Source: a virus (taxonomy: Duplodnaviria > Heunggongvirae > Uroviricota > Caudoviricetes). From it: DNA of 42,137 nt. The position numbers and the translations under genes are program-made. The notes beneath the pieces are model-generated. The model was not told where the DNA came from and made no database searches. It was given only the letters and a program-made list of their open reading frames with translations. The DNA lies in IMG/VR virus record IMGVR_UViG_3300022468_000500. One strand, 5' to 3'. Shown piece after piece: positions 4,701 through 26,072 of this stretch. Numbering within the stretch: the stretch's first letter is position 1; every line of letters starts with the position of its first letter.

Positions 4701-7700
4701 AAGCAGTTGCTGGTTCTTTTGGTGGCATCATGGGTGCTGCAGAAATTCAAAAGAAAGTAGCTATTGATAAAATCAATTCTGATAACGCAGTTATTAATAG
4801 TCAAGCAGCTTTAATTCGTGCTACTCAAGAGAATACAGCACAAATGGCCCTAGCAACAGCTAAAGCCGAATTATTAGCAGCTAAGGAAATGGATGAACGT
4901 AGAGTTGATCGTCCTCAAGCTATTGCTACTGCACAGAAGAAGGTAGATGCAGCGCAATTTACTTTAGACGTCGTACAAGATGACCCATCTAAAGTTATCG
5001 CTAACATCAAAAAGGTTTCTAAGGCTGTTACAGAAGCAAACACTGTAAGCGCCGAAGAAGGTACTGCACTAGTGCGTTACCTAACAACACTTGGTGGAAT
5101 TGCTGCTCAGAAAATATCTAATGCTAATGCTAAGGCTGTGGCGGAATTCACTGCTGAAATCAATAAAGTAGAAGAAAGACTAAACGAAGCTAAGAAACCA
5201 GTAGTTCAAAAGATTACTACTGATAAGGCCGAGTTACAGGCTTTAGATATTCAGAAAAGTATTAATAATAACCTATCAGTAGAAGAATTAACACGTAAAC
5301 GTGTACTAAGTCTTTCTATCGCTGAAGGTGAAGAATCAGTAAAAATCTTAGAAATTAATAGCAAACTAGAAGCACTATCTATCAAAGAAGCCAACGCTAG
5401 AAAAACTGGTCTTTTAACCGTTAAAGATAAGTTAGGCGTGACACTAGCTGATGGTATTGCTAGCGAAAGAGCAACATTAGCACAAGAGAAGAAAAATGCT
5501 GCCACTGATAAAGAATTAGCAGTTCGTAAGATATCACTTGATATCGCTAATGAAATCTATCAGAAGGAAGTAGATTCTCTAAACTTAGCTAACGATATTG
5601 CCACTAAGCGTTTAGAAGCTCGCAGGCTAGTAGAGGATACAACACTAGCAATTGCACAATCTAATCTAGAAACAGCAAAAACTACGGAATTATATTCTGA
5701 TGGTTATGTAGCCAGATTAGAAGCTGAGCAAAACACTATGAAGGCTTCTTTAGATATTAATCGTGCTATGGAAGATGAAAAAGCACGATACGCTTTAGAA
5801 GTACGTTTACAACTAGCTGAATACATGAAGGCAGTTGAAACGGGAGCTGATGAAAGAACTCTACAAGCAATTCGTGATCGTATTGATGCTAACGCCGTAT
5901 TCCATGCATCTGCACTATCTGGTATTCTACAACGTGGCGAAGCAGAGCTAGCCTCATTAGAAACTATCAGAGAGCACAATATTCTATTAGCCTCTCAAGC
6001 CGAAATGATGGAGTCAATGGTTAGTATTACTACTAGCTTAGGTTCTGCATTTGGTGAAGTTGGTGACGCTATTGGTAGAGCAGGTGAAGCAATTCTAAAG
6101 TTTGCGCAGAATGATGAGAAATACTTAGCTAAAAAGAAACAATTAACAAAAGAAATCGCTAAGGCTGAAGAAGGTTCCGATAAGCAAATGGAACTAAAGA
6201 AGCAAGATGCAAAATTAGATGCTAAATTCCAAACACAACAGTTAGACGGCATTTCTGAAATTGCTGGTGAAACTAAGAAAATGTTCAAGGAAAAAACTGC
6301 AGCGCATAAAGCGTTTGCCGCAGTTGAAAGAGTAACGGCAGCTATGAGCTTAGCGCTTAAAGTGCAAGCAGCCGCAGTTGATCTAGCTTTACTACCTGGT
6401 AAAATTGCTGGTGGTATTAGTATGATGTTCTCTCAAGGTGGTTTCGCAGGTTTCGCTGGAGCAGCAGCATTCTTAGCTATTATGGCAGGTTTCGGATTCG
6501 GAGGCGGTGGAAGCATTAGCTCCCCCGGTATGGATTCAGGCAGTATTCAAGAAGTGCAAGGTACAGGTAGAGAATACCAAGACGGCCAACTAACAGATAC
6601 GCAATGGGGTGTGTTAGGTGATTTAGACGCTAAAGCTGAAGATATTTCCAAGTCTTTAGACATGGTTAGAGAGTACACTTCTTTAACTTCAGTTTATGGT
6701 CGTTCAACTAAGAAGGCTTTAGAAGCCATCGAAACTAATACAAGAACTCTAGCTGCACAAGTAGTTAAAGGAACAAATATTTCAGGTAATACTAGTGGAT
6801 TCGGAACGCTTGAAAAGAGCTCACCAGGATTCTTAGGTTTATTTGCAAGTTCTACCTCTATCATTGATAAGGGTATTCAAGTAACAGGTAAGTTCAACGA
6901 TGTGTTAAGCGGATTAGCAAACTATAAAGAATACGAAACAGTACAAAAGACAAACAGTGGTTTCCTAGGTCTAGGTAAAAGTACTAAGACTTTCCAGAAC
7001 TTTAAGGATCTTCCTAAGGAAGCGGCGGAGTCAATCCAAAGCCTATTCCAGAACATGTACACAGCTATTGTGGACAGTTCTAAAAAGCTAATGGGTAAAG
7101 CTGCAGTTGACATCAATCAAATCGTAGCCGATATGATGGTTGATTTCAAAGTTTCAGGCGAAGGTCTAAGCGGAGAAGAATTAGCAAGTGCTATTCAAGC
7201 AGAAGCTAGTGTAACGATGAATAAAATCGTTGGCACAGCATACCCTTGGTTAGACGAGTTCAGACAGCTTGGTGAAGGCTTTACTACTACATTAATTCGC
7301 ATGGCTACGACCATGGATGTAGTGAATGAAAAGTTCCGTTTACAAGGCGTTGACTTTGCTAAGTTCCTACCTGAATTAGCTGAAGCCTCACAAGCAGCAG
7401 TAGACCAAGTTAATCAAGCAATCGCAGACGCTAGAAAAGCTCGTGATGCAGTAGAAAATACTGCTGGTCGTGGCACCGCTACTACCACAGCATACGCTGG
7501 CGAAGGTGAAAATAGAGAAGTAACTACAGTAGAAGTTCAAGTGCGTAAGCCTAGCGAAAGCGAAGTACAGGCACTACTAGACGCAGATAAGAAACTTGCG
7601 GAAGCCAGACTAGCGATGGCGCGTGAGTTAGGTGACGATGTTGTGGCAATTGCTGAAGAAGTAAATGCTGCGCAAGCTGCGTACACTGAAGCTCGTTTAG

Positions 7701-10700
7701 CTATTCTTGATAATGTAACAGCTGTAGAAGATCTAGCATTAGTTGAAAGACTAATGAAAGGTGAAATTGATAAAACAAGTCAAGCATATCAAAATGCTTC
7801 TGATGAAGTAAAAGACCTATATGAAGCCAACCTAGCATTAGCTGAATCTACAGCTAAGTTAGGAGATGCACAATACAACCAAGTAGCAAGCAATCTTCGT
7901 ATTTATAATGCTTTAGTAGAACAGATGGGTGGTTTAGATGCTTTCGTTGAGAAAACTGATTTCTTCTTCGAAAACTTCTTCTCTAAGGAAGAACAGTTAG
8001 CAGCTAAGCGTACCGAAGTTAGCACAGCCTTATGGGACCTAGCTAGCGATGACACTCTAAATATTACTAATGATCAAGTACGTGAGTTAATGGCAGCCGG
8101 TGGTGACGACGCAATACGTATGTACAAGGAACTAGCGCAAGCTCAAGACCTAAGTACAGAAAGCGGCAGAGCTACTTACGCAGCATTACTAACCCTAGCT
8201 CCAGCGTTCCACGAAAGTGCTACAGCAGCACAGGAAGCAGCAAACGCTATTGCTGAGGCAGCAGCCAGAATGCGCGATAGTGCTAACGCTCTATCAGATT
8301 CTGTAGCTAGTGCACTTGCAAAACTAAATAAGAAAACAAAAGATTACACAACAACGACTACAACTACCACAGATACTACTAGTGCGTACACGCAAGGTAT
8401 GATTTCTGCAGGTAAGTCTATTCTTGACTTTATTAAGAATATTCGTACAGAAGCTGCAAAAATGGCTGGTGTAGAAGAAGCTAAAGCAATTCTTGGCTCT
8501 GATTATCGTAAGGACTATGCATTAGCCATGGCAGGTGATCTAGAAGCAAGTAAGAGAATTCCTACAAGCTCTAAAGCATACCTAGAGTCTCAGACTAAGG
8601 GTGCATCTACTACTGCTGAAGCTCGTATTGCTATGCTAACCATGGCAAATCAACTAGCTAGACTACCTGCTGTAAAAACGTATGAGCAATCAATGTTAGA
8701 ATCAACAACTAATATTGATGATAATGTTAGTGATATTGAGGACAAGTTATCTGACTTAGAGTTAGAAGGTATTAAACTTGATATTAACGCTCTTTCTAAG
8801 ATCGAGAAGTTAATTCAGTTCACGGTAGATACCAAGAGATTATCTCCTGAACTAAAAGAAATACTACTATCCGAAACACTACCAGCTCTACAACGTAATA
8901 TCGATATTATCGAATCAGCAAACGCAACAGATGTATTAAAAAATATCGCTAGACTTGCTAATACCAAGTTAATTACTGAAGTAGAATTGATTCTAACGTC
9001 AAAAGCGTCTGACCTAGTTAAGAAATTAGGTATTGGATCAATGGACCAAGTAATTAAAAATATCGATATCATTATTAACTCTAATTTAACCGAAGAACAG
9101 AAAAAATTAGTATTCGCTATTAATGAAACCGTAGCTAAAACGATCACAATGATCGTATCTACTGACAAGTTAACAGAAGATCAAAAACGTCTAGGTCTAA
9201 TGGCCACTGATGAAATTAGTAAGTCAATCTCACTAATCACTAAGTCAGACTTATCTGAAGAAGATAAGCGTTTAGCCTTCATGAATACTGAAGAACGTAC
9301 TAAAACAGTAAAACTAATCATTGAAGGTAACTTCACTGAAGATCAGAAAACACTAGCATTACAATCTACTACTGAGACGGCCAAATACATTAACCTACTA
9401 GTTAATGATATTAGTCTAACAGCTGAACAACGTAGTATGGCCTTACAAAAAGCTTACGAAATTGATAAGACCATCAATTTAATTCTTAACGATGCGGCAA
9501 TGACTCCTGAAGAACGTACTCTAGCGTTACAAGGTACTAGCATGGCAACTCGTAAGATTAACGCAATTATGCAAGACGGCAGTTTAACTGCTGAGGAGCG
9601 CCTAATTGCACTAGATGGTGTATCACAACATATTCGTAACATTGATGCGATAATGCAGGATGATTCATTATCACCAGCAGAAAAGGAATTAGCATATGCT
9701 AAGGAACTAGACGCTATTAAACGTATCAAAGTAAGAACAGAAATCGATTCAGACTCATTAAAATCAGTAGATGATATTATAAAAGATACATTAGAAAGAT
9801 TCAGTTCTACTCTAGTAGCAGTAGCCGATCCTGCAGCTCTTAAAACAGCTAAGGAACAAATCGAAGCAGCTACTTCAGATGTGTTAGCAACTATTACTCC
9901 AGAAAGTTCACCTGAGGATGTAGCAGCTGCCCGCGCAACTCTAGAAAAGCAAATGGCTGACATTGTCGCCCCTATTCTAGCAGAGTTAGACCCTGAAACA
10001 GCTAAGAAAGTAAAAGATCAATTAAATTCAGGCTTAGACGAAGTATTCGCAAGAGTACAAGTTGATATTGATGAATCCTCTGCTGCTAAAGCTAAGGATA
10101 AGTTAAGAACAGCCGCAGAAGGTATTTTAGCAAGTATCGGTGTAGATGTAGATGATGCCACTGCTGACAAAGCTAGAGGTACTATTGAAGATGCACTAAG
10201 CAATATTCAAGCAGCAATTCAAACAGAAGTTGATACAGGAAGCACTGCAGAAACTCGCCAAGCTATTCAGGACGCAATCGGTTCTGTGGTAGCAGCAGTA
10301 GGCGTAGAGGCTGATGGCACAACCTCACAAGCTGCTAGACAAGCAATTACTGATGCCGTACAAGGAATTCGCGCTTCTATAACTACAACCAGCGATGGTA
10401 CAGATATAGCAGTAAGAGATTCTATCGAAAGCACAGTAAGTGATATTTTAGCAGAAGTTGGAGTAGATACTGGTGGCTCTGAAATTGACGCAGCTAACGC
10501 AATCCGTGACGCAGTGTCAAATATTACATCTACCATTACAATCAAAACAGACGGAAGCGAAGCCAATGTGGCTGCTTCTATAGCGGAAGCTGTAAGTAAT
10601 AATACTGCTACTATTAAGGTAGTAGAATCAGGACTAGATACCTTTAATGAACTAGTTGCTGAAGCAGTTGAACCGGCTGATAAGATACTTCAAGTTGTGG

Positions 10701-11305
10701 GTGCGGGTGGAGAAGAATATGCAAGTTATATTTCTGCACTAACCCAACCTGTAACGCAAGTTATAACTATTCAAACAATTAATACTGTTACGACAGTGTA
10801 TGAACCTAGTGCGCCACCTCCACAGACACAAACTGTGGTACCAAGCGCTTTAGGTAACATATTTGTACCAGGTACTGTTACCGCCTTCAAGTTAGGCGGA
10901 TTACCAAGTAATTCAGTACTAAACAAGCCAACGTTGTTTGACATGGGTTTAGCTGGTGAAGCAGGCCCAGAGGCAATCATGCCACTAAAGAGAGGTAAGG
11001 ACGGAAGTCTAGGGGTTAGGGCAATGTTAGGTACAGCACCAGGGGGTGGGTCTACAGAATCTATAACTTCAGAGTTACGTGCTATGCGTGCAACTCTTGT
11101 AGAAACCCATAATGCAGAAATGCAGAATAATGCAGGAAAGGAAATGGCAGAAGTAGTAGCCGAACTGAAGGCACTTCGTAAAGAAGTAGAAACGTTGAAG
11201 GTAGAAGCAAGGGCAACCGCAGCTCATACCAACAAGACGGCAAAACTTCTAGACAGAGCAATGCCAGGAGGTAATGCTATAGCTACTAAACCAGTACAAC
11301 AATGA
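1799..11305 (+). CDS. Tape measure protein, 3168 aa
   Basis: Position after the chaperones, SD AGGAG and Ala/Glu/Lys-rich helical composition. The N-terminus is T5 pb2-like (YAANIFAVSAAF...GVDMSDAVSRISRGITKLEPELLDELGI). The C-terminus has a lambda-type TMP motif (GLAGEAGPEAIMPLKRGKDGSLGV). Confidence 0.92.
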   Translation: MATQNVKVVVTVTDNNSTKAVIKDVNQLNATIKAAKASAAGIMADTGGTKGSRSVSKQAQPTGSEAVRDYGTSRGAAGLTGASSRDFANQAQGLGGLVRLYATYAANIFAVSAAFRALSNAMDTTNMVKGLDQLGTASGMALGSLSKRLVAATDGAISLREAMEATAKASSSGMNSEQILRMGKAAKQASQALGVDMSDAVSRISRGITKLEPELLDELGIFVRVDTVVKDYAKSVGKSASAITDFEKRMAFANATLTQAEKKFGAIDIESNPYTKLSASVKDLTQSGLELVNKVLTPVVSLLASSPTSLGLVIAGLGTMLLKQAIPAFGQYRAHLDSLAKESSSKVGAIFLEQEEILAQGDLRAAQRAEAAYRGSRAAMNSVKTLQANAAQFTDTVSKKYSQIAAIDPYKISDKEIAALEMRAKQIQKINANEAAALRAHVVEIRRLRGEAEAAALAGQAAYEKKTSGSLSTQGQNRILFDRAAQQASAAEVRSLVSQRQALYGAADAWSTLNTEIAKSKAGMRTIDVIDHLGETVQKTVPRTNALQNGMMRLSGAFGIVTGAVSKAVSAFQPWILVILLVVEGFAILNSMLSKNKKQQEEFAGAIERSASATDTFIKTIKRLNEQPFGEQFNTAGMLARANAIGEVAGAVQDLVNGIIELDKTAGTWDRFIDGFKTVWGGDARSKFAESMTSTIVGALTQIEGSSDAVKARKKLSEILDIDPKFTANSFNKAIAAAAGNAPKLKEINEVMKELGINQGITASKSKELEDSFKTGKDAYKAVLDTFKIKDPIAVLGESMLVSSGKLVKALEEPTRAISELAKISKDTDAMQLLDPADAALLGKYGQELNTINASYEEQASKIAEAEAALIKYQEELKNFKASSGYRPNASDEQVSRSAKGKELVEAKNKAETNLAKRQENLAKTNKSIAEMVAKFPNVATNQFIRGAGLMSDSISAAINKASYGFKEAVAGSFGGIMGAAEIQKKVAIDKINSDNAVINSQAALIRATQENTAQMALATAKAELLAAKEMDERRVDRPQAIATAQKKVDAAQFTLDVVQDDPSKVIANIKKVSKAVTEANTVSAEEGTALVRYLTTLGGIAAQKISNANAKAVAEFTAEINKVEERLNEAKKPVVQKITTDKAELQALDIQKSINNNLSVEELTRKRVLSLSIAEGEESVKILEINSKLEALSIKEANARKTGLLTVKDKLGVTLADGIASERATLAQEKKNAATDKELAVRKISLDIANEIYQKEVDSLNLANDIATKRLEARRLVEDTTLAIAQSNLETAKTTELYSDGYVARLEAEQNTMKASLDINRAMEDEKARYALEVRLQLAEYMKAVETGADERTLQAIRDRIDANAVFHASALSGILQRGEAELASLETIREHNILLASQAEMMESMVSITTSLGSAFGEVGDAIGRAGEAILKFAQNDEKYLAKKKQLTKEIAKAEEGSDKQMELKKQDAKLDAKFQTQQLDGISEIAGETKKMFKEKTAAHKAFAAVERVTAAMSLALKVQAAAVDLALLPGKIAGGISMMFSQGGFAGFAGAAAFLAIMAGFGFGGGGSISSPGMDSGSIQEVQGTGREYQDGQLTDTQWGVLGDLDAKAEDISKSLDMVREYTSLTSVYGRSTKKALEAIETNTRTLAAQVVKGTNISGNTSGFGTLEKSSPGFLGLFASSTSIIDKGIQVTGKFNDVLSGLANYKEYETVQKTNSGFLGLGKSTKTFQNFKDLPKEAAESIQSLFQNMYTAIVDSSKKLMGKAAVDINQIVADMMVDFKVSGEGLSGEELASAIQAEASVTMNKIVGTAYPWLDEFRQLGEGFTTTLIRMATTMDVVNEKFRLQGVDFAKFLPELAEASQAAVDQVNQAIADARKARDAVENTAGRGTATTTAYAGEGENREVTTVEVQVRKPSESEVQALLDADKKLAEARLAMARELGDDVVAIAEEVNAAQAAYTEARLAILDNVTAVEDLALVERLMKGEIDKTSQAYQNASDEVKDLYEANLALAESTAKLGDAQYNQVASNLRIYNALVEQMGGLDAFVEKTDFFFENFFSKEEQLAAKRTEVSTALWDLASDDTLNITNDQVRELMAAGGDDAIRMYKELAQAQDLSTESGRATYAALLTLAPAFHESATAAQEAANAIAEAAARMRDSANALSDSVASALAKLNKKTKDYTTTTTTTTDTTSAYTQGMISAGKSILDFIKNIRTEAAKMAGVEEAKAILGSDYRKDYALAMAGDLEASKRIPTSSKAYLESQTKGASTTAEARIAMLTMANQLARLPAVKTYEQSMLESTTNIDDNVSDIEDKLSDLELEGIKLDINALSKIEKLIQFTVDTKRLSPELKEILLSETLPALQRNIDIIESANATDVLKNIARLANTKLITEVELILTSKASDLVKKLGIGSMDQVIKNIDIIINSNLTEEQKKLVFAINETVAKTITMIVSTDKLTEDQKRLGLMATDEISKSISLITKSDLSEEDKRLAFMNTEERTKTVKLIIEGNFTEDQKTLALQSTTETAKYINLLVNDISLTAEQRSMALQKAYEIDKTINLILNDAAMTPEERTLALQGTSMATRKINAIMQDGSLTAEERLIALDGVSQHIRNIDAIMQDDSLSPAEKELAYAKELDAIKRIKVRTEIDSDSLKSVDDIIKDTLERFSSTLVAVADPAALKTAKEQIEAATSDVLATITPESSPEDVAAARATLEKQMADIVAPILAELDPETAKKVKDQLNSGLDEVFARVQVDIDESSAAKAKDKLRTAAEGILASIGVDVDDATADKARGTIEDALSNIQAAIQTEVDTGSTAETRQAIQDAIGSVVAAVGVEADGTTSQAARQAITDAVQGIRASITTTSDGTDIAVRDSIESTVSDILAEVGVDTGGSEIDAANAIRDAVSNITSTITIKTDGSEANVAASIAEAVSNNTATIKVVESGLDTFNELVAEAVEPADKILQVVGAGGEEYASYISALTQPVTQVITIQTINTVTTVYEPSAPPPQTQTVVPSALGNIFVPGTVTAFKLGGLPSNSVLNKPTLFDMGLAGEAGPEAIMPLKRGKDGSLGVRAMLGTAPGGGSTESITSELRAMRATLVETHNAEMQNNAGKEMAEVVAELKALRKEVETLKVEARATAAHTNKTAKLLDRAMPGGNAIATKPVQQ
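8840..9703 (+). repeat. Protein-level 27-28-aa repeat array in TMP (~10 units)
   Basis: Units such as LTEEQKKLVFAINETVAKTITMIVSTDK, LTEDQKRLGLMATDEISKSISLITKSD and LTAEERLIALDGVSQHIRNIDAIMQDDS. Confidence 0.85.
10040..10632 (+). repeat. Second protein-level 26-27-aa repeat array in TMP (~7 units)
   Basis: Units such as ILASIGVDVDDATADKARGTIEDALSN, VVAAVGVEADGTTSQAARQAITDAVQG and ITSTITIKTDGSEANVAASIAEAVSN. Confidence 0.85.
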
Positions 11306-14829: not shown

Positions 14830-15278
14830 TGAGATACGCATTAATTAATTCAGGAACTGTTTTAGCTTTTATTGAGTGTACCTCTATACAGGCAGCAGCA
14901 CTACAGACTAGTTGGGATCATGTAGTAGAAGCACCAGCCCACGTAACTATATATGACAAATACGATAACGGAAACTTTAGTGTGGGTAACTTTGAACCAG
15001 TAGCAAAAGAAGTCAGGAAAGTAACTGTTTTAGGATTTCTAAGACGATTTACTGATGCTGAAGCTATAGCTATTGATTTAGGTAGCATCGGAGCGACCGT
15101 ACAAGCTGCCAGTCTACGCAGATACGTAGCAATGGTAAATGCGGCCAAGTTCGTTGATCTAGATAGACAAGATACTAGAAATGGTGTGCTGGCTTTAGTT
15201 GGGGCAGGTATCTTGACACAAGAACGTGCTGATGTAATTCTAGATGGGCCCATTCCTATAGAGGACCTAGCAGCATGA
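14829..15278 (+). CDS. Putative tail fibre assembly chaperone
   Basis: 149 aa, directly after the fibre genes. The C-terminal helical motif (FLRRFTDAE...VDLDRQDTRNGVLALVGAGILTQERAD) is typical of fibre-associated chaperones. Confidence 0.55.
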   Translation: MRYALINSGTVLAFIECTSIQAAALQTSWDHVVEAPAHVTIYDKYDNGNFSVGNFEPVAKEVRKVTVLGFLRRFTDAEAIAIDLGSIGATVQAASLRRYVAMVNAAKFVDLDRQDTRNGVLALVGAGILTQERADVILDGPIPIEDLAA

Positions 15279-15799
15279 AACTAGCCTCCTATGTGGGCAC
15301 TAGAAAAGGTTTCATAGGGATAGGTAACATTCTGATCCGCTTAAGACTAGGCGGATCAGAAAGCCATACTGAAGTCATGTTCGAACCTGGTGACGGTGTA
15401 GATGAATACATGCCCGACCTAACCTGCCAACCAGATGAGAATGGTGCCTATTGGCACTTTTCATCAGTAGGGCTCGAACGTATGCCACCGTGGTCCCGCA
15501 GAGCTGGAAAGCTCGGTGGAGCACGTTTTAAAAGAATCGTGCCTGAAGACAAATGGGCTTACGATGTAATGGATACCGACCCTACACGAGCAGCCATGCT
15601 AGCTAAGGAACTAGATGGCTCTTTATACGACTGGCAAGCAATTGTCAGATTTATCTTCTGGGTACTACCAGCCAAGCTATCAAGAGGTATGTGCAGCGAA
15701 ATTTGTGCACGCCTAGCTGGTATAGCTAAAGAGGAAGCACATTTATTCTGTCCTCGTACTATTCGTGCGATGGTAAAAGGATTTAAATGCAAGCACTAA
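15275..15799 (+). CDS. Permuted papain-like/NlpC-P60 (YiiX-like) enzyme
   Basis: His-first, Cys-last order: SHTE near the N-terminus, then YDW and MCSEICA near the C-terminus. Confidence 0.6.
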   Translation: MKLASYVGTRKGFIGIGNILIRLRLGGSESHTEVMFEPGDGVDEYMPDLTCQPDENGAYWHFSSVGLERMPPWSRRAGKLGGARFKRIVPEDKWAYDVMDTDPTRAAMLAKELDGSLYDWQAIVRFIFWVLPAKLSRGMCSEICARLAGIAKEEAHLFCPRTIRAMVKGFKCKH

Positions 15800-16143
15800 T
15801 ATTAAAATTCTGGAGAGAAATTGCACTAGCAGTAGCACTTTTAGGTTTAGGATATATGGTGTACAACCATATCTATGAACGAGGTGCCCAAGCTGCTACG
15901 GAACAATATCAAAAGGAATGGAAAGATTATCAGCAAACAATAACTGATAAGATTGATACTATTGAGAGAAACTCTAATGAACTAGTCGCAAGACGTGTAG
16001 CTAAAGATGGAGTAACCAAGAAAGAAATCGAACAGGTTATTGCCAAGAGTTTAAAAGCTCCCGTGGTTGATCCAGTAGCATGCAGATTAACTCCTAATTT
16101 CGCAGAAAGCTACAATGAAATTATTGATAGGGCAAATAAATGA
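15787..16143 (+). CDS. Inner-membrane spanin (Rz-like)
   Basis: Single N-terminal TM (IALAVALLGLGYMVY) followed by a coiled coil. Immediately precedes a lipoprotein gene. Confidence 0.75.
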   Translation: MQALILKFWREIALAVALLGLGYMVYNHIYERGAQAATEQYQKEWKDYQQTITDKIDTIERNSNELVARRVAKDGVTKKEIEQVIAKSLKAPVVDPVACRLTPNFAESYNEIIDRANK

Positions 16144-16460
16144 AAGCACTATTAGTAGGATTATTATTAGCTATAAGCTTAACGGCTTGTGGTCATACTG
16201 AAAAAATCATAGTACCTCCTGAATCTAAAGTAAATGTTAATCAGGAAGCTTTACAGCCGTGTGCGCCACTGGAAAAACTTCCAGAATTAACTTATACTGA
16301 TTTAGAACGAGATATGCAACTAGTCCTAGGGACCTCTGCAGTCAACGCTATAATCTATTCAACATGTAAAAATAAGCAAAATGATAGTATTAAGTTACTA
16401 AAAGAATTTGCTAATATAAAGGATGAAGCAGATGCTAAAAGACCTATTCAGACCCCGTAA
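16140..16460 (+). CDS. Outer-membrane spanin lipoprotein (Rz1-like)
   Basis: Signal peptide with lipobox LTA-C, a Pro-containing mature part and an ATGA overlap with the i-spanin stop. Confidence 0.8.
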   Translation: MKALLVGLLLAISLTACGHTEKIIVPPESKVNVNQEALQPCAPLEKLPELTYTDLERDMQLVLGTSAVNAIIYSTCKNKQNDSIKLLKEFANIKDEADAKRPIQTP

Positions 16461-16854
16461 CTACTTACTAGTAATTGGGTCATTACTAGTGCTACTATAC
16501 ACTTATTTTGCAGATCCAGAAGGTGGGCCCATGCTAATGGGCCTACTAGATAAACTGACTGTTCCAATTATTGCTGTATGGTTCGCACACCTATCCAGAA
16601 AAGCTCTATTTGATTATTTAGATATGGGCGAATTATGGAGAAAAGCAAAGGAGAGCTCAATTGGCGCAGCAATTACGTTTTTGGCTATATGTTTGGTGCT
16701 GTTCGGTTTGCTTGGTCTATTTGGAAATCAGGTACGCGCTGAAAATGTTAAGACTTATGTACCTGAAAATGCACAAACATATTTACCCGAGCTCAAATTC
16801 CAGCAATTAGCTCTGTGGACTGAACACCCAAAAGCTGGTACCTTGCAAGTTTAA
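16423..16854 (+). CDS. Three-TM holin-like membrane protein; N-terminal part of a frameshift fusion with the endolysin
   Basis: Three hydrophobic segments (about residues 13-30, 37-57 and 79-101) within a lysis block. SD AAGGA sits 8 nt before Met4 (16432). Confidence 0.7.
   Translation: MKQMLKDLFRPRNYLLVIGSLLVLLYTYFADPEGGPMLMGLLDKLTVPIIAVWFAHLSRKALFDYLDMGELWRKAKESSIGAAITFLAICLVLFGLLGLFGNQVRAENVKTYVPENAQTYLPELKFQQLALWTEHPKAGTLQV
16827..16833 (+). other. Candidate -1 slippery site C-CCA-AAA joining the holin-like ORF to the transglycosylase
   Basis: X-XXY-YYZ heptamer in frame 0, inside the 28-nt window (16824-16851) where both frames are open. Confidence 0.55.
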
Positions 16855-17396
16855 TAGAACACGAGTCTTGTATAGGTTTAAAACATTCTAGGTGCTGGAA
16901 TCCTTCTTCTAGACTAAAAACTAGTAGAGAAGAAGGGGCCGGCCTAGGACAAATTACTCGTGCGTATAGTACGGATGGCAGCATAAGATTCGATGCTTTA
17001 GCTGAGTTAAAAGCTAAGCACCCTAGTATACTAAGAGAATGGTCTTGGGATAATGTATATAAAAGACCAGATCTACAATTGGCAGGTATCGTGTTAAAAA
17101 TGCGAGATAACTTCACATACTACGACGGTAAAGCCAGTGAGTTTGAAGAACAGTACGCTTTTGCTGATGCTTCTTATAACGGTGGTATTGGTGGTCTCGA
17201 CAGAGAGCGCAGAATATGTAATCTTACAAAAGGTTGTGACCCTAAAAAATGGTTTGGACATGTAGAAAACTACTGTTTGAAATCAAAAACTGCGTTATAC
17301 GGACAACGCTCAGCTTGTCAGATAAATAGAGAACACGTAATAGATGTAATGAAAGTAAGAGCTCCTAAGTACAAAAAATTTATGACGTCAAACTGA
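16833..17396 (+). CDS. Lytic transglycosylase (SLT-type endolysin) domain, in -1 frame relative to 16423..16854
   Basis: The -1 frame reads SWYLASLIEHESCIGLKHSRCWNPSSRLKTSREEGAGLGQIT...ASYNGGIG, containing SLT motifs (catalytic ES, GLGQ, AxYNGG). The ORF track shows only the last 105 aa (17079..17396). Confidence 0.85.
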   Translation, partial: SWYLASLIEHESCIGLKHSRCWNPSSRLKTSREEGAGLGQITRAYSTDGSIRFDALAELKAKHPSILREWSWDNVYKRPDLQLAGIVLKMRDNFTYYDGKASEFEEQYAFADASYNGGIGGLDRERRICNLTKGCDPKKWFGHVENYCLKSKTALYGQRSACQINREHVIDVMKVRAPKYKKFMTSN

Positions 17397-17408: not shown

Positions 17409-17437
17409 TTGACGTAATTTCCCATTAGTGATAAAAT
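17409..17437 (+). promoter_or_regulatory. Sigma70-type promoter for GIY-YIG endonuclease
   Basis: TTGACG-17 nt-TAAAAT with extended -10 TG. Confidence 0.8.
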
Positions 17438-17460
17438 ATAAATTCACTAATGGAGAAACT

Positions 17461-18150
17461 ATGACTTGTGGCGTATATTTACTAAAATTTACAGGCACTG
17501 ATCTAGTCTATATAGGTCAAAGCATCAATATAGAGGACAGATACTCAACTCATTTGTATAATCTGTCAACAGGAGTAAAAGCCAATAAAAAATTGCACGC
17601 CGCTTATACTTTATACGGTGCACCTAAACTAGAGATATTAGAAGAATGCACAATAGATAAATTATCCGAGCTAGAGTCTTATTATATAAAAGATTTCGAT
17701 ACTATAGATAATGGTCTTAATATATTAAGTAACACTGATATTAAAGGCTATTCGTTACCTGGTGTTACGAATCCTAATTCTAAATACTCAATGGAGGTGT
17801 GTGAAGCTGTATTCAATGAAATTGTAGCAGGTACCATAAGTTTACTAGAAATTAGTAAGACACTAAATGTACATAAGTCTTTGGTATATGGTATAGCCGA
17901 AGGATTAGCACACAGGAGTTGGCTGGAGGAGAAGTACCCAGAAAAATACGCTATATTGCTATCTAAACAAGGTAAATGGAAACATAAAGGCGTTACTAAT
18001 GAATTGTTTATAAAAGACCCTTTAGGCAATGTGCACAAGATTAGCACTAGTTTAAAGGAATTCGCCCTACAGTACGATCTCAATAGTGGACACATAAGTA
18101 GCGTACTATCGGGTAAACGAGTTCAACATAAAGGATGGACTCTGCCATAA
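17461..18150 (+). mobile_element. Free-standing GIY-YIG homing endonuclease gene
   Basis: GVYLLKF...VYIGQS motif, conserved Arg (IEDRY) and Glu (LESYYI), and HTH/NUMOD-like C-terminal modules. The start is probably ATG 17461 (SD GGAG) rather than GTG 17428, which falls inside the promoter. Confidence 0.85.
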
Positions 18151-18159
18151 GGAATAATT

Positions 18160-18891
18160 ATGGATTATGTAAAACTACTAACAATAGCCGGAGTATCTGC
18201 TGATCTCCATGACTCAGCAATCTCTAGTTTAATGAAAGCTGAACAACGCGCCAAAGGCTTAACACTAGCCAAGTGGAAAGTTCGGTTATTTAAAGCTAAA
18301 AAGATTTCCGAACTACTATCTTGGGAAGACGAACGTTTAATCGACAAGCACCCAGAACTCGCAGCATGGGATATTGCACCAATGCTTAACATTACTGCTC
18401 ACGGTGATAACGTGCCATGGGTACGTACTAGGGCTGGTGACTTACCTATGGCTGGTCGCTGGCTTAACCCCGACCCTACATCAGCAGAGTATCATTTCGC
18501 TGTAAGTGAGAACTATTGGAAGAAAGGTACTCATCCACGTTCTAAAGAATCTCGATTTGCTTGGTATCGCCGTAACGCTGGTGAGTACAATGCGTGGGAG
18601 CGCGGAGAACCTGTATCTAAAGACATGCCACAACAAAAATGGGCTGGCAGTGACAAAGATACTAATGTTAAGGTACAGCGCTGCGGTAATGTGTGGTTCC
18701 TGAATGTTAACTACAAATTACTAAAAGTCATCCCAATAAAAACTAGAATTGGTTTTGAAATCGACAATGTATTCAAGGTTAAAAAGAACGAAGTTACTGG
18801 ACAAGAAGAAGTTGTACAGTTATGGTATCCTATTTTAAATCATGAGTTACGCGCACCTGTTACTTGGTCAACACTGCCAGGTAAAGACTAA
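18160..18891 (+). CDS. Hypothetical protein (243 aa, Trp-rich)
   Basis: Long ORF with SD AAGGA and phage-like codon usage. No motif recognised. Confidence 0.75.
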   Translation: MDYVKLLTIAGVSADLHDSAISSLMKAEQRAKGLTLAKWKVRLFKAKKISELLSWEDERLIDKHPELAAWDIAPMLNITAHGDNVPWVRTRAGDLPMAGRWLNPDPTSAEYHFAVSENYWKKGTHPRSKESRFAWYRRNAGEYNAWERGEPVSKDMPQQKWAGSDKDTNVKVQRCGNVWFLNVNYKLLKVIPIKTRIGFEIDNVFKVKKNEVTGQEEVVQLWYPILNHELRAPVTWSTLPGKD

Positions 18892-22566: not shown

Positions 22567-22985
22567 TTGCCTGTGCTACCAAAACCACCAGTACCGCGTG
22601 GACTATAGTCAAATTCGAATACTTCTTCAAATTCAGGTAAATATACAGGTACTACCATTAGCTGAGCAATTCGTTCGCCAGCTGATGCTTGATAATCAGT
22701 CATACCTCTATTGGACAACATGGCTATAACTTCACCCTGATATCCGTGGTCAATGACCCCAACAGAGTTAGCAAGCGTTACTTGTAGTTTAGCTTGACCA
22801 CTTCTAGAGCACAGTAATCCTACGTAACCACGAGGAATATCTACTGCAATACCAGTATGTACTTTTACTACTTCTCCAGGCCTAATGACAATATCTTGCA
22901 TCGTACATAGATCAGCTCCAGCATCCCCGTCATGTGCACGTGTAATAGATGCAGCTGAGTTTAGCTTTTTAAAAGCAATTTTCAT
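22563..22985 (-). CDS. dut: Trimeric dUTPase
   Basis: Motifs AGADL, RSG, GVIDHGYQGE, RIAQL and RGTGGFGSTG. Confidence 0.97.
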   Translation of the reverse strand: MKIAFKKLNSAASITRAHDGDAGADLCTMQDIVIRPGEVVKVHTGIAVDIPRGYVGLLCSRSGQAKLQVTLANSVGVIDHGYQGEVIAMLSNRGMTDYQASAGERIAQLMVVPVYLPEFEEVFEFDYSPRGTGGFGSTGK

Positions 22986-23827
22986 CCGTAATACTCCTGA
23001 AATTTAGCGTGAATATCTTCACAGTTTTCTTTACCAATAGCCTCAGCACAATAAGACACTAAGTCCATCAGTTGATAATTTAACATTAGCTTGTCAGCAC
23101 CAAAAGCATTCAGTGATTGAATATACTTTAGTTTACCTGGCAGCGGCATACTTGCAATAATATCGAATGTAGTACCGTACTTAGCAACTAGCTCTTGAGC
23201 ACGCTTAGGGCCAATGCCCTCTACTCCGGGAATACTATCACCACTATCGCCCATTAAGCATTTGATAGAAATATGATCTTCTATATTGTAGTCGTAATGC
23301 TCAAGCCAGTTATCGTACGTAATTTCTTTACGCGTAACATAGCTAAATCTAGAAACCTGCTCATTGATTAACAAGTCCCAGTCACGGTCACTAGAGATTA
23401 GCCAAATACGTTCTAATCCAAACTTTTTCTTATTTACAGTTATGTAAGCAGCTAAGTCGTCAGCTTCCACTCCCTTGTACTGTAACGTAAGGAAATTTTC
23501 TTTAAGCACGTCTAGTGTTTTGAGATAGTCTGCGAAGAACAGCTCAAAATCTTCTGCTTCTTGCTCGGTTTGTTCATCACGCTTTTCCTTGCGGCCAATC
23601 TTATATTCAGGGTATAAGTCTTTACGATAACTGCTGCTACCAGAATCCGCAGTGATAATAATCTTTCCAGTATGATAGCTAGTAGCTAGACTACGAACTG
23701 TTTTTAGATAGTCATCTGCAAAGTTACGCTGTTTTTTATGTTTGTATCGAAACGCTAAGTTTAACGCATCTACTACTAGAGCGTCCTCGTCATTATGAAC
23801 TATTTGAGATGCGAATGATTTACTCAT
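22982..23827 (-). CDS. D15: Flap endonuclease / 5'-3' exonuclease (T5 D15)
   Basis: Motifs DALNLAFR, YRKDLYPEYK, EADD, SSDRDW and GDSGDSIPGVEGIGPKRA, with T5 synteny. Confidence 0.93.
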   Translation of the reverse strand: MSKSFASQIVHNDEDALVVDALNLAFRYKHKKQRNFADDYLKTVRSLATSYHTGKIIITADSGSSSYRKDLYPEYKIGRKEKRDEQTEQEAEDFELFFADYLKTLDVLKENFLTLQYKGVEADDLAAYITVNKKKFGLERIWLISSDRDWDLLINEQVSRFSYVTRKEITYDNWLEHYDYNIEDHISIKCLMGDSGDSIPGVEGIGPKRAQELVAKYGTTFDIIASMPLPGKLKYIQSLNAFGADKLMLNYQLMDLVSYCAEAIGKENCEDIHAKFQEYYG

Positions 23828-24282
23828 TTAATAAATTTAGGTTTTTCCAAAGTTAACCAATCTTCTAGCAAGCTTACAAAGAATGAATAGGTTTTAACTT
23901 CTATGTAAGCGTACTCTACACCATTTTCGGGCATATCGGTATACGCTACGAATACTTTGGAACGGTCATGTTTAAAAATTAATAAAGGTTTTCTACTTAC
24001 TTGATCACCTTGTCTAACTGCCTGCTCCCACCACTGCAGTAGTTGCGGGTTTTTACTGGTAAACAGTGTAGAATTAAAATGATCGTCAGCGTAGTGCTTT
24101 ACTTCTATACAAAACAGATTACCTTCATCCGGAATGTATAGATCGCCCTTTAGTTTATGTTTTTCGTCTAGAGCTCCTGAACCCGGAGTGCGTTCAAACT
24201 TTAAGCCTGTGTGTTTTCTTAAAAGGTCACGCACGACCGTTTCAGCGCGCGTGCCTTTATCTTTACTCGGATTACTAGCCAT
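23824..24282 (-). CDS. D14: PD-(D/E)XK Holliday junction resolvase-like nuclease (T5 D14)
   Basis: Motifs SKDKGTRAE, PGSGA, KGDL and IEVK, with T5 synteny. Confidence 0.85.
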   Translation of the reverse strand: MASNPSKDKGTRAETVVRDLLRKHTGLKFERTPGSGALDEKHKLKGDLYIPDEGNLFCIEVKHYADDHFNSTLFTSKNPQLLQWWEQAVRQGDQVSRKPLLIFKHDRSKVFVAYTDMPENGVEYAYIEVKTYSFFVSLLEDWLTLEKPKFIK

Positions 24283-26072
24283 TACTCAATCCTAGATATA
24301 TTGTTTTCTTTTACAACAAATACCTTCTCTAGAAGCGCATGCTGGTAACCATGTGAAACAAGAACAGTATTCAACTCTTTTTCATTTAGTAGGATTTCTA
24401 CTAGCTTTTCTTTACCTTCAGCGTCTAAAGATTCAACCGTTTCGTCTAGGAACAGTAAATTGATTCTACTGTTAGATAACGACTGCATCAACGCACGAAT
24501 AGCTAATAACGTAGCCATATTAACTCTAGCGCGTTCACCACCGGATAGTGCTAGAATTTCAATATCTACACCATTATCTGTAATTACAACATTAAGCTTA
24601 TCACTAGAGCTAATCTGGAAGCTAATGTTGAAACGTCCATCAGATAAATCTGCAAGATAGTCATTTGTGAGATCCTCTAAATCCTTTACTAGGCCTTCAA
24701 TCTTATAGGCTACTAATCCTGTAGTACTGAAGGTTTTAACTAAAATTTGTAAAGTAGAAAGACGCTTTTCAGCTGCTTTAAGTTTTTCTGATTCAACTTC
24801 TAAAGTTTTGCGCATTTCATCACGCTGTGACAGAATAACATCAATTTTAGCATTAGCCGCGTAGATATTCTTATTCTGCTTTTCAATAGCAGATATATTT
24901 AATACTTCAGCGTCTAACTTTACTTGAAGCTTAGATAGCTGCTTTACCAAAGTATCTCTATCAAGTACTTCCGACCCTACACTAGCATCCACTAAAGCAT
25001 GGTACTTTTCCCACTCTTGTTGAGAGGTAACACTTGCTTGCCATAATTTTAGTGCTGCTTCGTAGTCGCTAATCTGTTTATTATAATTGATTAAGCTTTC
25101 TTCCGCAAGATCAATTGTTTCCTGCTTATCTTTGACCATAAACGCAATCTTTTCTTCATTGACTGCTTGTAGACAAGTAGGGCAATCGCCATGCACTTTT
25201 GAGAATTTAGCAATAAAAGCTTTGCGTTCAGTAATCGTATTAAGAGCTACAGCTTTGTCAGCACGTAACTTATTAATATCAGCAATTGGCTTTTCTGCTG
25301 TAGTTACTTTAATACCAGCAAGTATTTCTTTATATTTATTGTTCTGAATAATACGACGATTAATCTGCTCAATATCCGCAATCTGCTTCTCTAGTACCCC
25401 GATTTCTTTTTGTAAATCGTCTGGGTATGTTGGCACATCCAACATTTCTTTTTTAGTGAAGTCGTACGTTTTATACTGAGTGAGCCACTGTTCTGCGATA
25501 CTTATAGCCCCTTGAAGCCTTGACACACTGTCTCCGGCGTCTTTCGCTAAAGCCTTGAATAGTTCGCCTGCTTTCGTATATTTTTCTAAACTCAGAAGGT
25601 CGATCAAAAACTTTTTTCGCACAGAATCTGTAGCCGTTAGGAACTCCAGACTGGATGCGCTAGACTGATAAACAATCTGGCAAAATGCTTTATGATCCAT
25701 ACCTAAAATATCTTCGATTAATTTATAGGTATTTGTAGCCGTGTGAGCTGAGATATCTTCACCATTTTTATACAGCTTTATAGTTGCTGTAGCGCCACGA
25801 ACAGTATCAATGAAGTAAGCATCGTTATCTTTTGTGAATGCTAACTTAATCCAATACTTATTAACGTCTACATAGCGATTAATAATATTGGCTTTCTTAA
25901 TACCTTTAGAGTTCTTATTGTATAAACACTCTTCTAGAATTAAGGCGATGCTGGTTTTTCCGTGTCCGTTTTTAGCAACTAACTGTACTAGAGGGCATTC
26001 TGAAAAGTCGATACTATTATTATCGCCATAAGAGAATGCGTAACCCCATGAAAGTTTGCCTAATTTAATCAT
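24282..26072 (-). CDS. D13: SbcC/Rad50-like recombination ATPase (T5 D13)
   Basis: Walker A AKNGHGKTS, zinc hook CPTC, signature LSGGE and Walker B LFLDE. Confidence 0.93.
   Translation of the reverse strand: MIKLGKLSWGYAFSYGDNNSIDFSECPLVQLVAKNGHGKTSIALILEECLYNKNSKGIKKANIINRYVDVNKYWIKLAFTKDNDAYFIDTVRGATATIKLYKNGEDISAHTATNTYKLIEDILGMDHKAFCQIVYQSSASSLEFLTATDSVRKKFLIDLLSLEKYTKAGELFKALAKDAGDSVSRLQGAISIAEQWLTQYKTYDFTKKEMLDVPTYPDDLQKEIGVLEKQIADIEQINRRIIQNNKYKEILAGIKVTTAEKPIADINKLRADKAVALNTITERKAFIAKFSKVHGDCPTCLQAVNEEKIAFMVKDKQETIDLAEESLINYNKQISDYEAALKLWQASVTSQQEWEKYHALVDASVGSEVLDRDTLVKQLSKLQVKLDAEVLNISAIEKQNKNIYAANAKIDVILSQRDEMRKTLEVESEKLKAAEKRLSTLQILVKTFSTTGLVAYKIEGLVKDLEDLTNDYLADLSDGRFNISFQISSSDKLNVVITDNGVDIEILALSGGERARVNMATLLAIRALMQSLSNSRINLLFLDETVESLDAEGKEKLVEILLNEKELNTVLVSHGYQHALLEKVFVVKENNISRIE

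Follow-up and report, generated by a model that had tools for sequence, protein, structure and literature searches.

The window analyzed here is the whole 42,137-nucleotide (nt) stretch of DNA in IMG/VR record IMGVR_UViG_3300022468_000500, a tailed virus of the Caudoviricetes. It carries a putative lysis gene in which a holin-like membrane protein and a predicted lytic transglycosylase endolysin lie in two overlapping reading frames, with a candidate −1 frameshift site in the overlap (Table 1). The upstream, zero-frame open reading frame (ORF) has three predicted transmembrane (TM) helices and is closed by a TAA codon. The enzyme is encoded in the −1 frame, which is closed by a TGA codon at 16821 to 16823 and open from 16824 to 17396; its earliest ATG, GTG, or TTG codon (TTG 17079) lies downstream of the IEHES and EEGAGLGQ motifs, that is, past the active site. 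The slippery heptamer C-CCA-AAA sits within the overlap of the two frames, and a −1 slip at this heptamer gives ...LWTEHPK-SWYLASLIEHESC..., a product of 324 amino acids (aa; 137 + 187) compared to 143 aa for the zero-frame product. These features had all been claimed in an earlier note made from the sequence of the window, and each was reproduced on the window sequence. The true start codon is probably ATG 16432 (M4), which is preceded by AAGGA 8 nt upstream; the alignment of relatives begins there, and gene callers report a protein of 140 aa. With this start, the two products would be 140 and 321 aa long.

Table 1. Features of the candidate lysis gene and the adjacent spanin candidates in the window
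Feature	Position	Strand	Details	Basis
i-Spanin candidate	15787-16143	+	118 aa; N-terminal TM	Weak PHROG match to Rz-like spanin, E 6e-4
o-Spanin candidate	16140-16460	+	106 aa; lipobox L-T-A-C, MKALLVGLLLAISLTACGH	Pfam LysC/Rz1-like, E 4e-4 (below cutoff); PHROG Rz-like spanin
Zero-frame ORF	16423-16854	+	143 aa; stop TAA 16852-16854	Window sequence
TM1 (Y14-F29)	16462-16509	+		Hydrophobicity; alignment A2; TM helix in AlphaFold2 (AF2) model of fused relative
TM2 (M37-L57)	16531-16593	+		Hydrophobicity; alignment A2; AF2 model of fused relative
TM3 (I80-G101)	16660-16725	+	Gly/Ala-rich	Aligned to holin TM3 and to the signal regions of class A endolysins; AF2 helix 74-99
V-R-A motif	16732-16740	+	AxA-type (small residues at −3/−1); 3 to 5 residues past TM3; cleavage would precede E107	
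Two-frame overlap	16824-16851	+	28 nt; TAA 16852 embedded in −1 codons TTA-ATA (L-I of SLIEHES)	
Slippery heptamer C-CCA-AAA	16827-16833	+	Zero-frame codons CCA 16828-30 and AAA 16831-33	
−1 frame segment	16833-17396	+	187 codons plus stop; A16833 read twice	
Catalytic E-S codons (IEHES)	16863-16868	+	−1 frame	
EEGAGLGQ	16929-16952	+	−1 frame	

Heptamers of this kind are infrequent in the window. Across its 27 long ORFs, in-register XXXYYYZ motifs occur 29 times in 11,024 codon positions, and in-register heptamers of the efficient class number four, including the site in the overlap. Given four such motifs per 11,024 codon positions, the chance of finding one inside the 9-codon overlap is ~0.3%. 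The other three are probably chance occurrences: an A-AAA-AAG at codon offset 456 of an SbcC-like nuclease gene (24282-26072, minus strand) and two A-AAT-TTY heptamers, one in PhoH and one in the ORF at 22982-23827.

When IMG/VR and metagenome contigs were scanned with the −1 part as the query, 160 loci were obtained (designated by L numbers below). At 51 loci (class A) the enzyme is separate and bears its own signal; at 52 (class B) the three-TM domain and the enzyme form a single continuous ORF of ~310 to 325 aa; and at 49 (class C), comprising 39 distinct junctions including that of the window, the three-TM ORF stops just past the site and the enzyme continues in the −1 frame. The class C loci come from many metagenomes, and their contigs look environmental, possibly from freshwater or sediment. 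Class C forms a single clade (support 99/88 in the careful tree; SH-aLRT 97 with 37 distinct rows) that falls inside the class B lineages with moderate support and has the window as one of its deepest branches. From the window to the nearest clade members, the tree path is ~0.9 to 1.1 substitutions per site, and the break is kept down to ~60 to 70% aa identity to the window's endolysin. The zero-frame stop lies at +28 nt in 33 of the 39 junctions (five TGA, mostly TAA); the remaining six have it at +19 or +55. Depending on the member, the −1 frame opens 0 to 177 nt 5′ of the site. Class B genomes have higher GC contents, and a scan with a single class B N-terminus gave one match in ~186,000 species genomes, a contig of a Rubrivivax metagenome-assembled genome.

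An in-register X XXY YYZ motif was detected within the overlap at 38 of the 39 distinct class C junctions. CCCAAAG predominates (28 junctions), followed by CCCAAAA (4), CCCTTTT (3, one of them displaced two codons downstream), CCCTTTC (1), CCCAAAC (1), and AAAAAAG (1). All of these except CCCAAAC fall within the V_VV.A_AA.R or H_HH.U_UU.Y classes, which were the most efficient in a systematic study in Escherichia coli; C_CC.A_AA.G was the best motif in that study, giving 54% frameshifting with the IS3 pseudoknot and ~0.3% without a stimulator (PMC4066793). Elsewhere, C_CCA_AAG is termed highly shift-prone (PMC5009743). The earlier note had proposed checking whether relatives keep both break and heptamer in varied context; 38 other distinct junctions share the break, and all but one of them carry an in-register heptamer, with varied flanking codons.

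These data bear directly on whether the break is genuine or is instead an artifact of sequencing or assembly, or a 1-nt deletion (A5 to A4) that has recently inactivated an otherwise continuous holin::endolysin ORF. Sister lineages do encode continuous fused ORFs of equal length, and restoring one A to the window gives the same protein as the −1 slip. However, three close relatives from independent assemblies (SRR25419747, SRR19631088, and ERZ25038569), whose zero-frame proteins are 88 to 91% identical to that of the window, share the same CACCCAAAAGCTGG/CACCCAAAAGC with four A's and the same stop, with their substitutions in the flanks. Most heptamers at the 39 junctions are not A-runs (CCCAAAG, CCCTTTT, and CCCTTTC), and CCCAAAG, CCCTTTT, and AAAAAAG are not derivable from the loss of an A, the alternative that the earlier note had raised. 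The branch lengths given above show that the broken clade is not a recent clone, the heptamer codons CAC and CCA are invariant, and the −1 part has a ratio of nonsynonymous to synonymous substitution rates (dN/dS) of 0.11 across saturated synonymous divergence. On these observations, an artifact or fresh deletion is extremely improbable. The frame break described in the earlier note stands. The window's gene is best seen, from these comparisons, as a fusion gene, continuous in sister lineages, that acquired a frameshift site inside its enzyme domain, rather than as a holin followed by an enzyme ORF of its own.

Patterns of substitution show purifying selection on both halves. The zero-frame part has a median dN/dS of 0.074 and the −1 part one of 0.114, and the proportion of synonymous differences (pS) between the window and other class C members was 0.7 to 0.83, indicating saturated synonymous sites. 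The better-conserved frame changes at the heptamer: on its 5′ side it is the zero frame, the −1 frame there being interrupted by stops in 31 of 32 sequences, and on its 3′ side it is the −1 frame, with a variable 6-residue zero-frame tail. Of 117 degenerate columns with an invariant residue, only eight show the same codon throughout, among them the heptamer's CAC and CCA, compared to two to four codons in each of the remaining invariant Pro and His columns. Class B proteins cross the junction with a length equal to that of class C, without a heptamer, and with variable residues (HPR, VPL, HPM, and MVN), so that H-P-K is conserved in class C as an RNA motif rather than a protein motif. At this one site, an in-register heptamer within the overlap, a conserved break with reduced synonymous variation, and a switch of coding frame coincide.

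The same evidence speaks to a simpler layout of two ordinary genes, in which a 143-aa holin would be followed by a signal-less cytoplasmic enzyme translated from a non-canonical start or by termination-reinitiation. A canonical holin paired with a cytoplasmic endolysin is the commonest lysis design, and in some relatives a TTG is located three codons before the site. Frameshifting at a heptamer alone is, moreover, inefficient in E. coli (PMC4066793). Yet the window and many other class C members have no −1 frame ATG, GTG, or TTG before the catalytic Glu, and reinitiation past the zero-frame stop, which abuts the catalytic E-S, would drop conserved N-terminal residues. Conservation of the −1 frame starts exactly at the heptamer, and two genes would leave unexplained both the six in-register heptamer types at one spot and the retention of the enzyme's first helix in the zero-frame ORF. 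We consider two separately translated genes very unlikely. It is also conceivable that RNA polymerase rather than the ribosome changes frame by slipping on a short homopolymer, since every site contains an A or T run of 3 to 6 nt and some bacterial and phage genes use such slippage (PMC5009743). Productive runs, however, are generally of ~7 or more identical bases (PMC5009743), whereas most members have three A's and then a G. Furthermore, the X XXY YYZ motif is conserved in the zero-frame register, including CCC and the wobble C of the preceding His codon, features that bear on tRNA re-pairing and not on polymerase slippage. We consider polymerase slippage highly improbable; the slip is probably ribosomal.

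Positions 16423/16432 to 17396 are accordingly read here, with a probability of roughly 0.85, as one gene encoding a fusion of a holin-type three-TM domain to a transglycosylase endolysin, decoded in two ways by a −1 slip. This reading draws on sequence comparison: the architecture, the homology of the two halves, the conserved break, the conservation and turnover of the heptamer, and purifying selection that switches frame. Standard decoding to TAA 16852 would yield the 140- to 143-aa membrane protein as the abundant product, which may serve as the holin. Some ribosomes would slip by −1 at C-CCA-AAA, with P-site pairing moving from CCA to CCC and A-site pairing from AAA to AAA, and would produce the rarer protein of 321 to 324 aa, in which TM3 would serve as signal or anchor for a transglycosylase facing the periplasm. 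The frequency of slipping would then set the ratio of enzyme to membrane protein from one mRNA and one start codon. The suggestion in the earlier note that a shift could fix this ratio appears more plausible now because the upstream ORF already comprises a holin homologue together with the enzyme's N-terminal helix.

After the three-TM domain, the zero-frame ORF continues through an AxA-type motif and the first endolysin-domain helix to the nonconserved 6-residue tail, and its product lacks the catalytic residues. It has the character of a holin in being a small membrane protein with three hydrophobic helices, joined to an endolysin and preceded by spanin candidates. Residues 2 to 96 match PHROG 8226 ('holin') weakly (E 3e-4), and hhalign aligned the three-TM protein with the holins of phages YuA, Sonora, and ECML-606-1 with 60% probability (E 9e-5), also a weak match to proteins that are themselves, as far as we know, holins by annotation only. 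In the YuA-like, Sonora, and ECML-606-1 cassettes, the gene order beside the spanins is the same and the enzyme is homologous (48 to 51% identity over 97% of the −1 part). These cassettes differ in that the holin is a separate, overlapping three-TM protein of 107 to 111 aa with spanins upstream and no frameshift, and the endolysin, of 237 to 243 aa, has its own N-terminal signal or signal-anchor-release (SAR) segment, which is gone in the window. Residues 1 to ~103 of the zero-frame ORF are the counterpart of the separate holin, and residues 107 to 137 (ENVKTYVPENAQTYLPELKFQQLALWTEHPK) give a gapless alignment with the N-terminus of the mature homologous endolysins (QDARTFVPSGAKVYAPVLVEKQKAVWPQAPEP|WTLAGLVEQESC in YuA). 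On the hhalign result, the three-TM protein is a probable homologue of YuA-type holins.

TM3, the third and internal TM helix, has 6 Gly in ~22 residues and is followed by the conserved AxA-type motif; the Sonora homologue is annotated as a SAR endolysin. In the alignments, TM3 stands in place of the endolysin's own signal or SAR segment. Members of classes B and C in alignment A2 retain the AxA-type motif, with at most one or two uncertain cases (variants among fused relatives are VYA|Q, VRA|Q, ARA|Q, AHA|A, and VFG|Q), and the separate holins of YuA, Sonora, and ECML-606-1 terminate in ...WAKA* at the equivalent point. Because the motif is kept after TM3 and the separate holins end in AKA there, processing by signal peptidase I at VRA|E into a holin and a free enzyme is plausible; TM3 might alternatively act as a tether or a SAR-like anchor. 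The charge pattern, with a basic N-terminus (MKQMLKDLFRPRN), an acidic loop (ADPEGGP), and a basic loop before TM3, predicts an N-in, C-out topology by the positive-inside rule. Relatives of the zero-frame protein form 173 clusters (90%) of 128 to 149 aa in public data, all unnamed or 'hypothetical.' Neither half of the fusion matched a Pfam family or a PDB sequence at E ≤ 1, and an exact-match look-up of the window's zero-frame protein returned no record. Similarly, tblastn with this protein found no real relatives among 50,697 phage records, and the class C family is therefore known only from metagenomes. At the DNA level, cultured phages yielded no more than a 15% match, to Bacillus phage AgentSmith.

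The −1 part matches PHROG 669 ('endolysin,' E 3e-13) and is 48 to 54% identical over ~97% of its length to annotated phage endolysins, including those of YuA-like Pseudomonas phages, Bordetella phages, and Stenotrophomonas phage Sonora ('SAR endolysin transglycosylase'), among others. Its catalytic E-S pair is invariant across 33 fused relatives. We modeled a relative with a continuous ORF, L031, rather than the window's own protein, using AF2 with a 33-sequence alignment (predicted local distance difference test score, 86.5). The L031 model comprises TM helices at 4-23, 29-55, and 74-99, a low-confidence linker, a helix at 110-126, and the catalytic helix at 134-144, and the position of the shift site falls in the loop between the last two. 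Top Foldseek matches of the model were all MltE, MltC, MltF, and Slt (probability 1.0, E 3e-3, TM-score 0.3 to 0.5). At E ≤ 1, the −1 part had no sequence match in the PDB and none in Pfam, SLT included. The enzyme represents a divergent family of its own, resembling family 1 lytic transglycosylases in its predicted fold; its chemistry may be that of a transglycosylase or of a lysozyme.

Apart from one case, the enzyme is typical of phages of Gram-negative hosts. That case, Bacillus phage vB_BspM_AgentSmith (L003, MW749006, 699-2780), is the closest cultured-phage homologue, with 54% identity. Its locus carries, in order, a 111-aa N-terminal copy (with the signal, ES, and GAGLG before its sequence diverges), an 'endonuclease' gene, and a complete copy of 308 aa that has a signal peptide of its own, an arrangement that looks like a partial duplication around a homing endonuclease. 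Three further loci (L063, L065, and L153) hold a 5′-truncated enzyme remnant from about residue 22, without the catalytic E-S, with upstream stops in all frames and unrelated neighbors; unlike the frameshifted clade, these are genuine dead copies.

Several observations weigh against a programmed shift in a fused holin-endolysin gene. First, the search for an RNA stimulator yielded none that is conserved: the RNA 3′ of the site folded no better than shuffled sequences (z = +0.4 for the window), and RNAalifold on several spans gave only weak or long-range pairs. A hairpin 6 nt 3′ of the heptamer in the window was likewise no better than shuffles and is not conserved. The sole conserved stem is long range (+35 to 46 with +109 to 120) and begins 28 nt past the site; its 12 bp are all formed in the main subclade (L006-L032), compared to 8 of 12 in the window and L005, and its variation consists of G-C/G-U changes only, with no compensatory changes. 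Second, only some clade members have an AAGG, ~11 nt 5′ of the site. Since even the best heptamers without stimulators gave ~0.3% in E. coli, efficiency may be very low. Third, one junction (L150) carries only A-CCT-TTT, and one member has CCCAAAC, a poor bacterial motif. Finally, the holin label of the three-TM domain leans on weak profile matches and synteny, and the 50,697-record phage collection yielded no cultured member. Either the efficiency could be low yet enough for an enzyme, or there could be a stimulator of another kind. The arms of the long-range stem in the window, at ~16862-16873 and ~16936-16947, cover the H-E-S-C-I and G-A-G-L-G-Q codons, respectively.

As a candidate general stimulator, CCTTG located 7 nt past the heptamer was rejected, as it is missing from other clade members. 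It is invariant in 21 sequences (L005-L032 equivalents; window 16841-16845), and its Leu codon is always CTT, which, with the Pro of the heptamer, is the only single-codon column among 67 residues of at least fourfold degeneracy. Possible reasons for this conservation are double coding (zero-frame T/P-L) and an RNA element specific to the lineage. The slippery A-site codon lies 31 to 45 residues past the end of TM3, and exactly 36 in 29 of the 39 junctions. We estimate that, at roughly this spacing, membrane insertion of a TM helix emerging from the ribosome would exert a pull on the peptidyl-tRNA. We entertain, as an unlikely and tentative idea, that the nascent chain rather than an RNA element stimulates the frameshift. 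Enhancement of −1 programmed ribosomal frameshifting (PRF) by nascent chains is reported for other systems (PMC12776465). Were it to operate here, the amount of endolysin made would depend on the state of the Sec/YidC machinery and of the membrane, and a single gene, possibly processed by signal peptidase at the AxA-type motif, would form a self-contained lysis module and timer.

Two products in a fixed ratio are the hallmark of the lambda G/GT and E. coli dnaX tau/gamma systems. Like the gene described here, both shift by −1 at a heptamer (G GGA AAG and A AAA AAG, respectively) and yield two proteins with a common N-terminus (PMC5009743, PMC4066793). The resemblance to G/GT extends to a long fusion that is probably the minor product of a phage late gene and to a site conserved across very divergent sequences. 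In contrast to both systems, the proteins in the window are lysis proteins, a membrane protein and a murein hydrolase, instead of tail assembly chaperones (G/GT) or a clamp-loader subunit (dnaX), and no hairpin or Shine-Dalgarno-like stimulator was found. The heptamer of copA is reportedly C CCA AAG, and head and tail genes of Lactobacillus phage A2 are said to use C CCA AAA with a downstream stem-loop; these are the heptamers of the class C majority (CCCAAAG) and of the window (CCCAAAA), respectively, although neither system involves lysis proteins. In E. coli, the copA frameshift yields a short truncated product, CopA(Z) (PMC5009743). Taken as a whole, the comparisons argue strongly that a fused holin-endolysin gene here uses −1 PRF of the kind found in G/GT or dnaX.

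Phages are known to solve lysis timing and ratio by separate genes, dual starts (holin/antiholin), SAR anchors, and signal peptides. In lambda S105/S107, the dose or timing of lysis is likewise set at translation, but by two start codons. Natural translational fusion has a parallel in the TpeE-family holin-endolysin of Clostridium sporogenes, which differs in having a single TM, a Gram-positive host, an unrelated enzyme, and a continuous ORF without recoding; its authors discuss the consequence of one enzyme per holin and possible later cleavage (PMC9527704). This was the only natural holin-endolysin fusion that we found discussed in the literature. We found no account there of the class B continuous fusions, which share domain order and junction length with class C and are its nearest sister lineages. 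Alteromonas phage vB_AspP-H4/4 has an annotated −1 shift at a slippery sequence after an 'endolysin' gene (gp39/gp40), whose product, however, is an internal virion (ejection) protein of 1,956 aa that has a lysozyme domain at its N-terminus and is encoded in the structural module, the holin gene lying elsewhere (PMC5658483). It is unrelated to the lysis family of the window, with no match in the homologue searches. For phage MS2, expression of L is said to need rare frameshifts in the coat gene (Kastelein 1982, as cited in PMC10885494 and PMC5009743); there, shifted ribosomes reportedly terminate and reinitiate at a separate L ORF, without a trans-frame fusion or a heptamer. The statement in the earlier note that no characterized lysis cassette is known to be controlled in this way agrees with full-text searches of the literature, in which we found no frameshift-joined holin-endolysin pair, and needs only the qualification that MS2 L, as cited in those sources, is a loose precedent for frameshift-dependent lysis.

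If correct, this reading would add to the known solutions two elements for which we found no description: a widespread natural fusion of a multi-TM, holin-type domain to an endolysin, presumably in phages of Gram-negative hosts, and programmed −1 frameshifting that makes the enzyme the minor product of the fused gene. The continuous and frameshifted lineages would offer a natural matched pair for studying lysis stoichiometry and the effects of an upstream membrane domain on frameshifting. There is also a consequence for annotation. Gene callers split the gene into a 'hypothetical' protein of 130 to 149 aa and a 5′-truncated enzyme without the catalytic Glu, and at least 173 public protein clusters are for this reason misannotated, a systematic fault in this family. 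At L167 (2124-2510), for example, the called enzyme is 128 aa long and starts after the catalytic Glu.

The o-spanin candidate overlaps the start of the holin-like ORF, and the order i-spanin, o-spanin, holin-endolysin gene, and PhoH is conserved in relatives. In the window, a GIY-YIG homing endonuclease gene (17428-18150, plus strand; Pfam GIY-YIG, E 4e-7; PHROG homing endonuclease) and an ORF at 18160-18891 separate the endolysin from PhoH, which lies directly 3′ in most relatives. GIY-YIG was also detected at the same spot in L150, and in L086 a weak match (26% identity) lies on the reverse strand, 3′ of PhoH. A 174-aa ORF (15275-15799, plus strand) immediately 5′ of the spanin candidates matches PHROG 1128 weakly ('enoyl-CoA hydratase/carnithine racemase-like,' E 3e-8) and has no Pfam match. 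The largest ORF of the window (1799-11305, plus strand) encodes 3,168 aa. A role as an N4-like virion RNA polymerase was considered for this protein and rejected, as its first ~520 residues match a tape-measure PHROG (E 3e-46); Pfam gave nothing in its first 1,067 residues. Related contigs reach 96 to 114 kb, indicating a large tailed phage, with a GC content of 40%.

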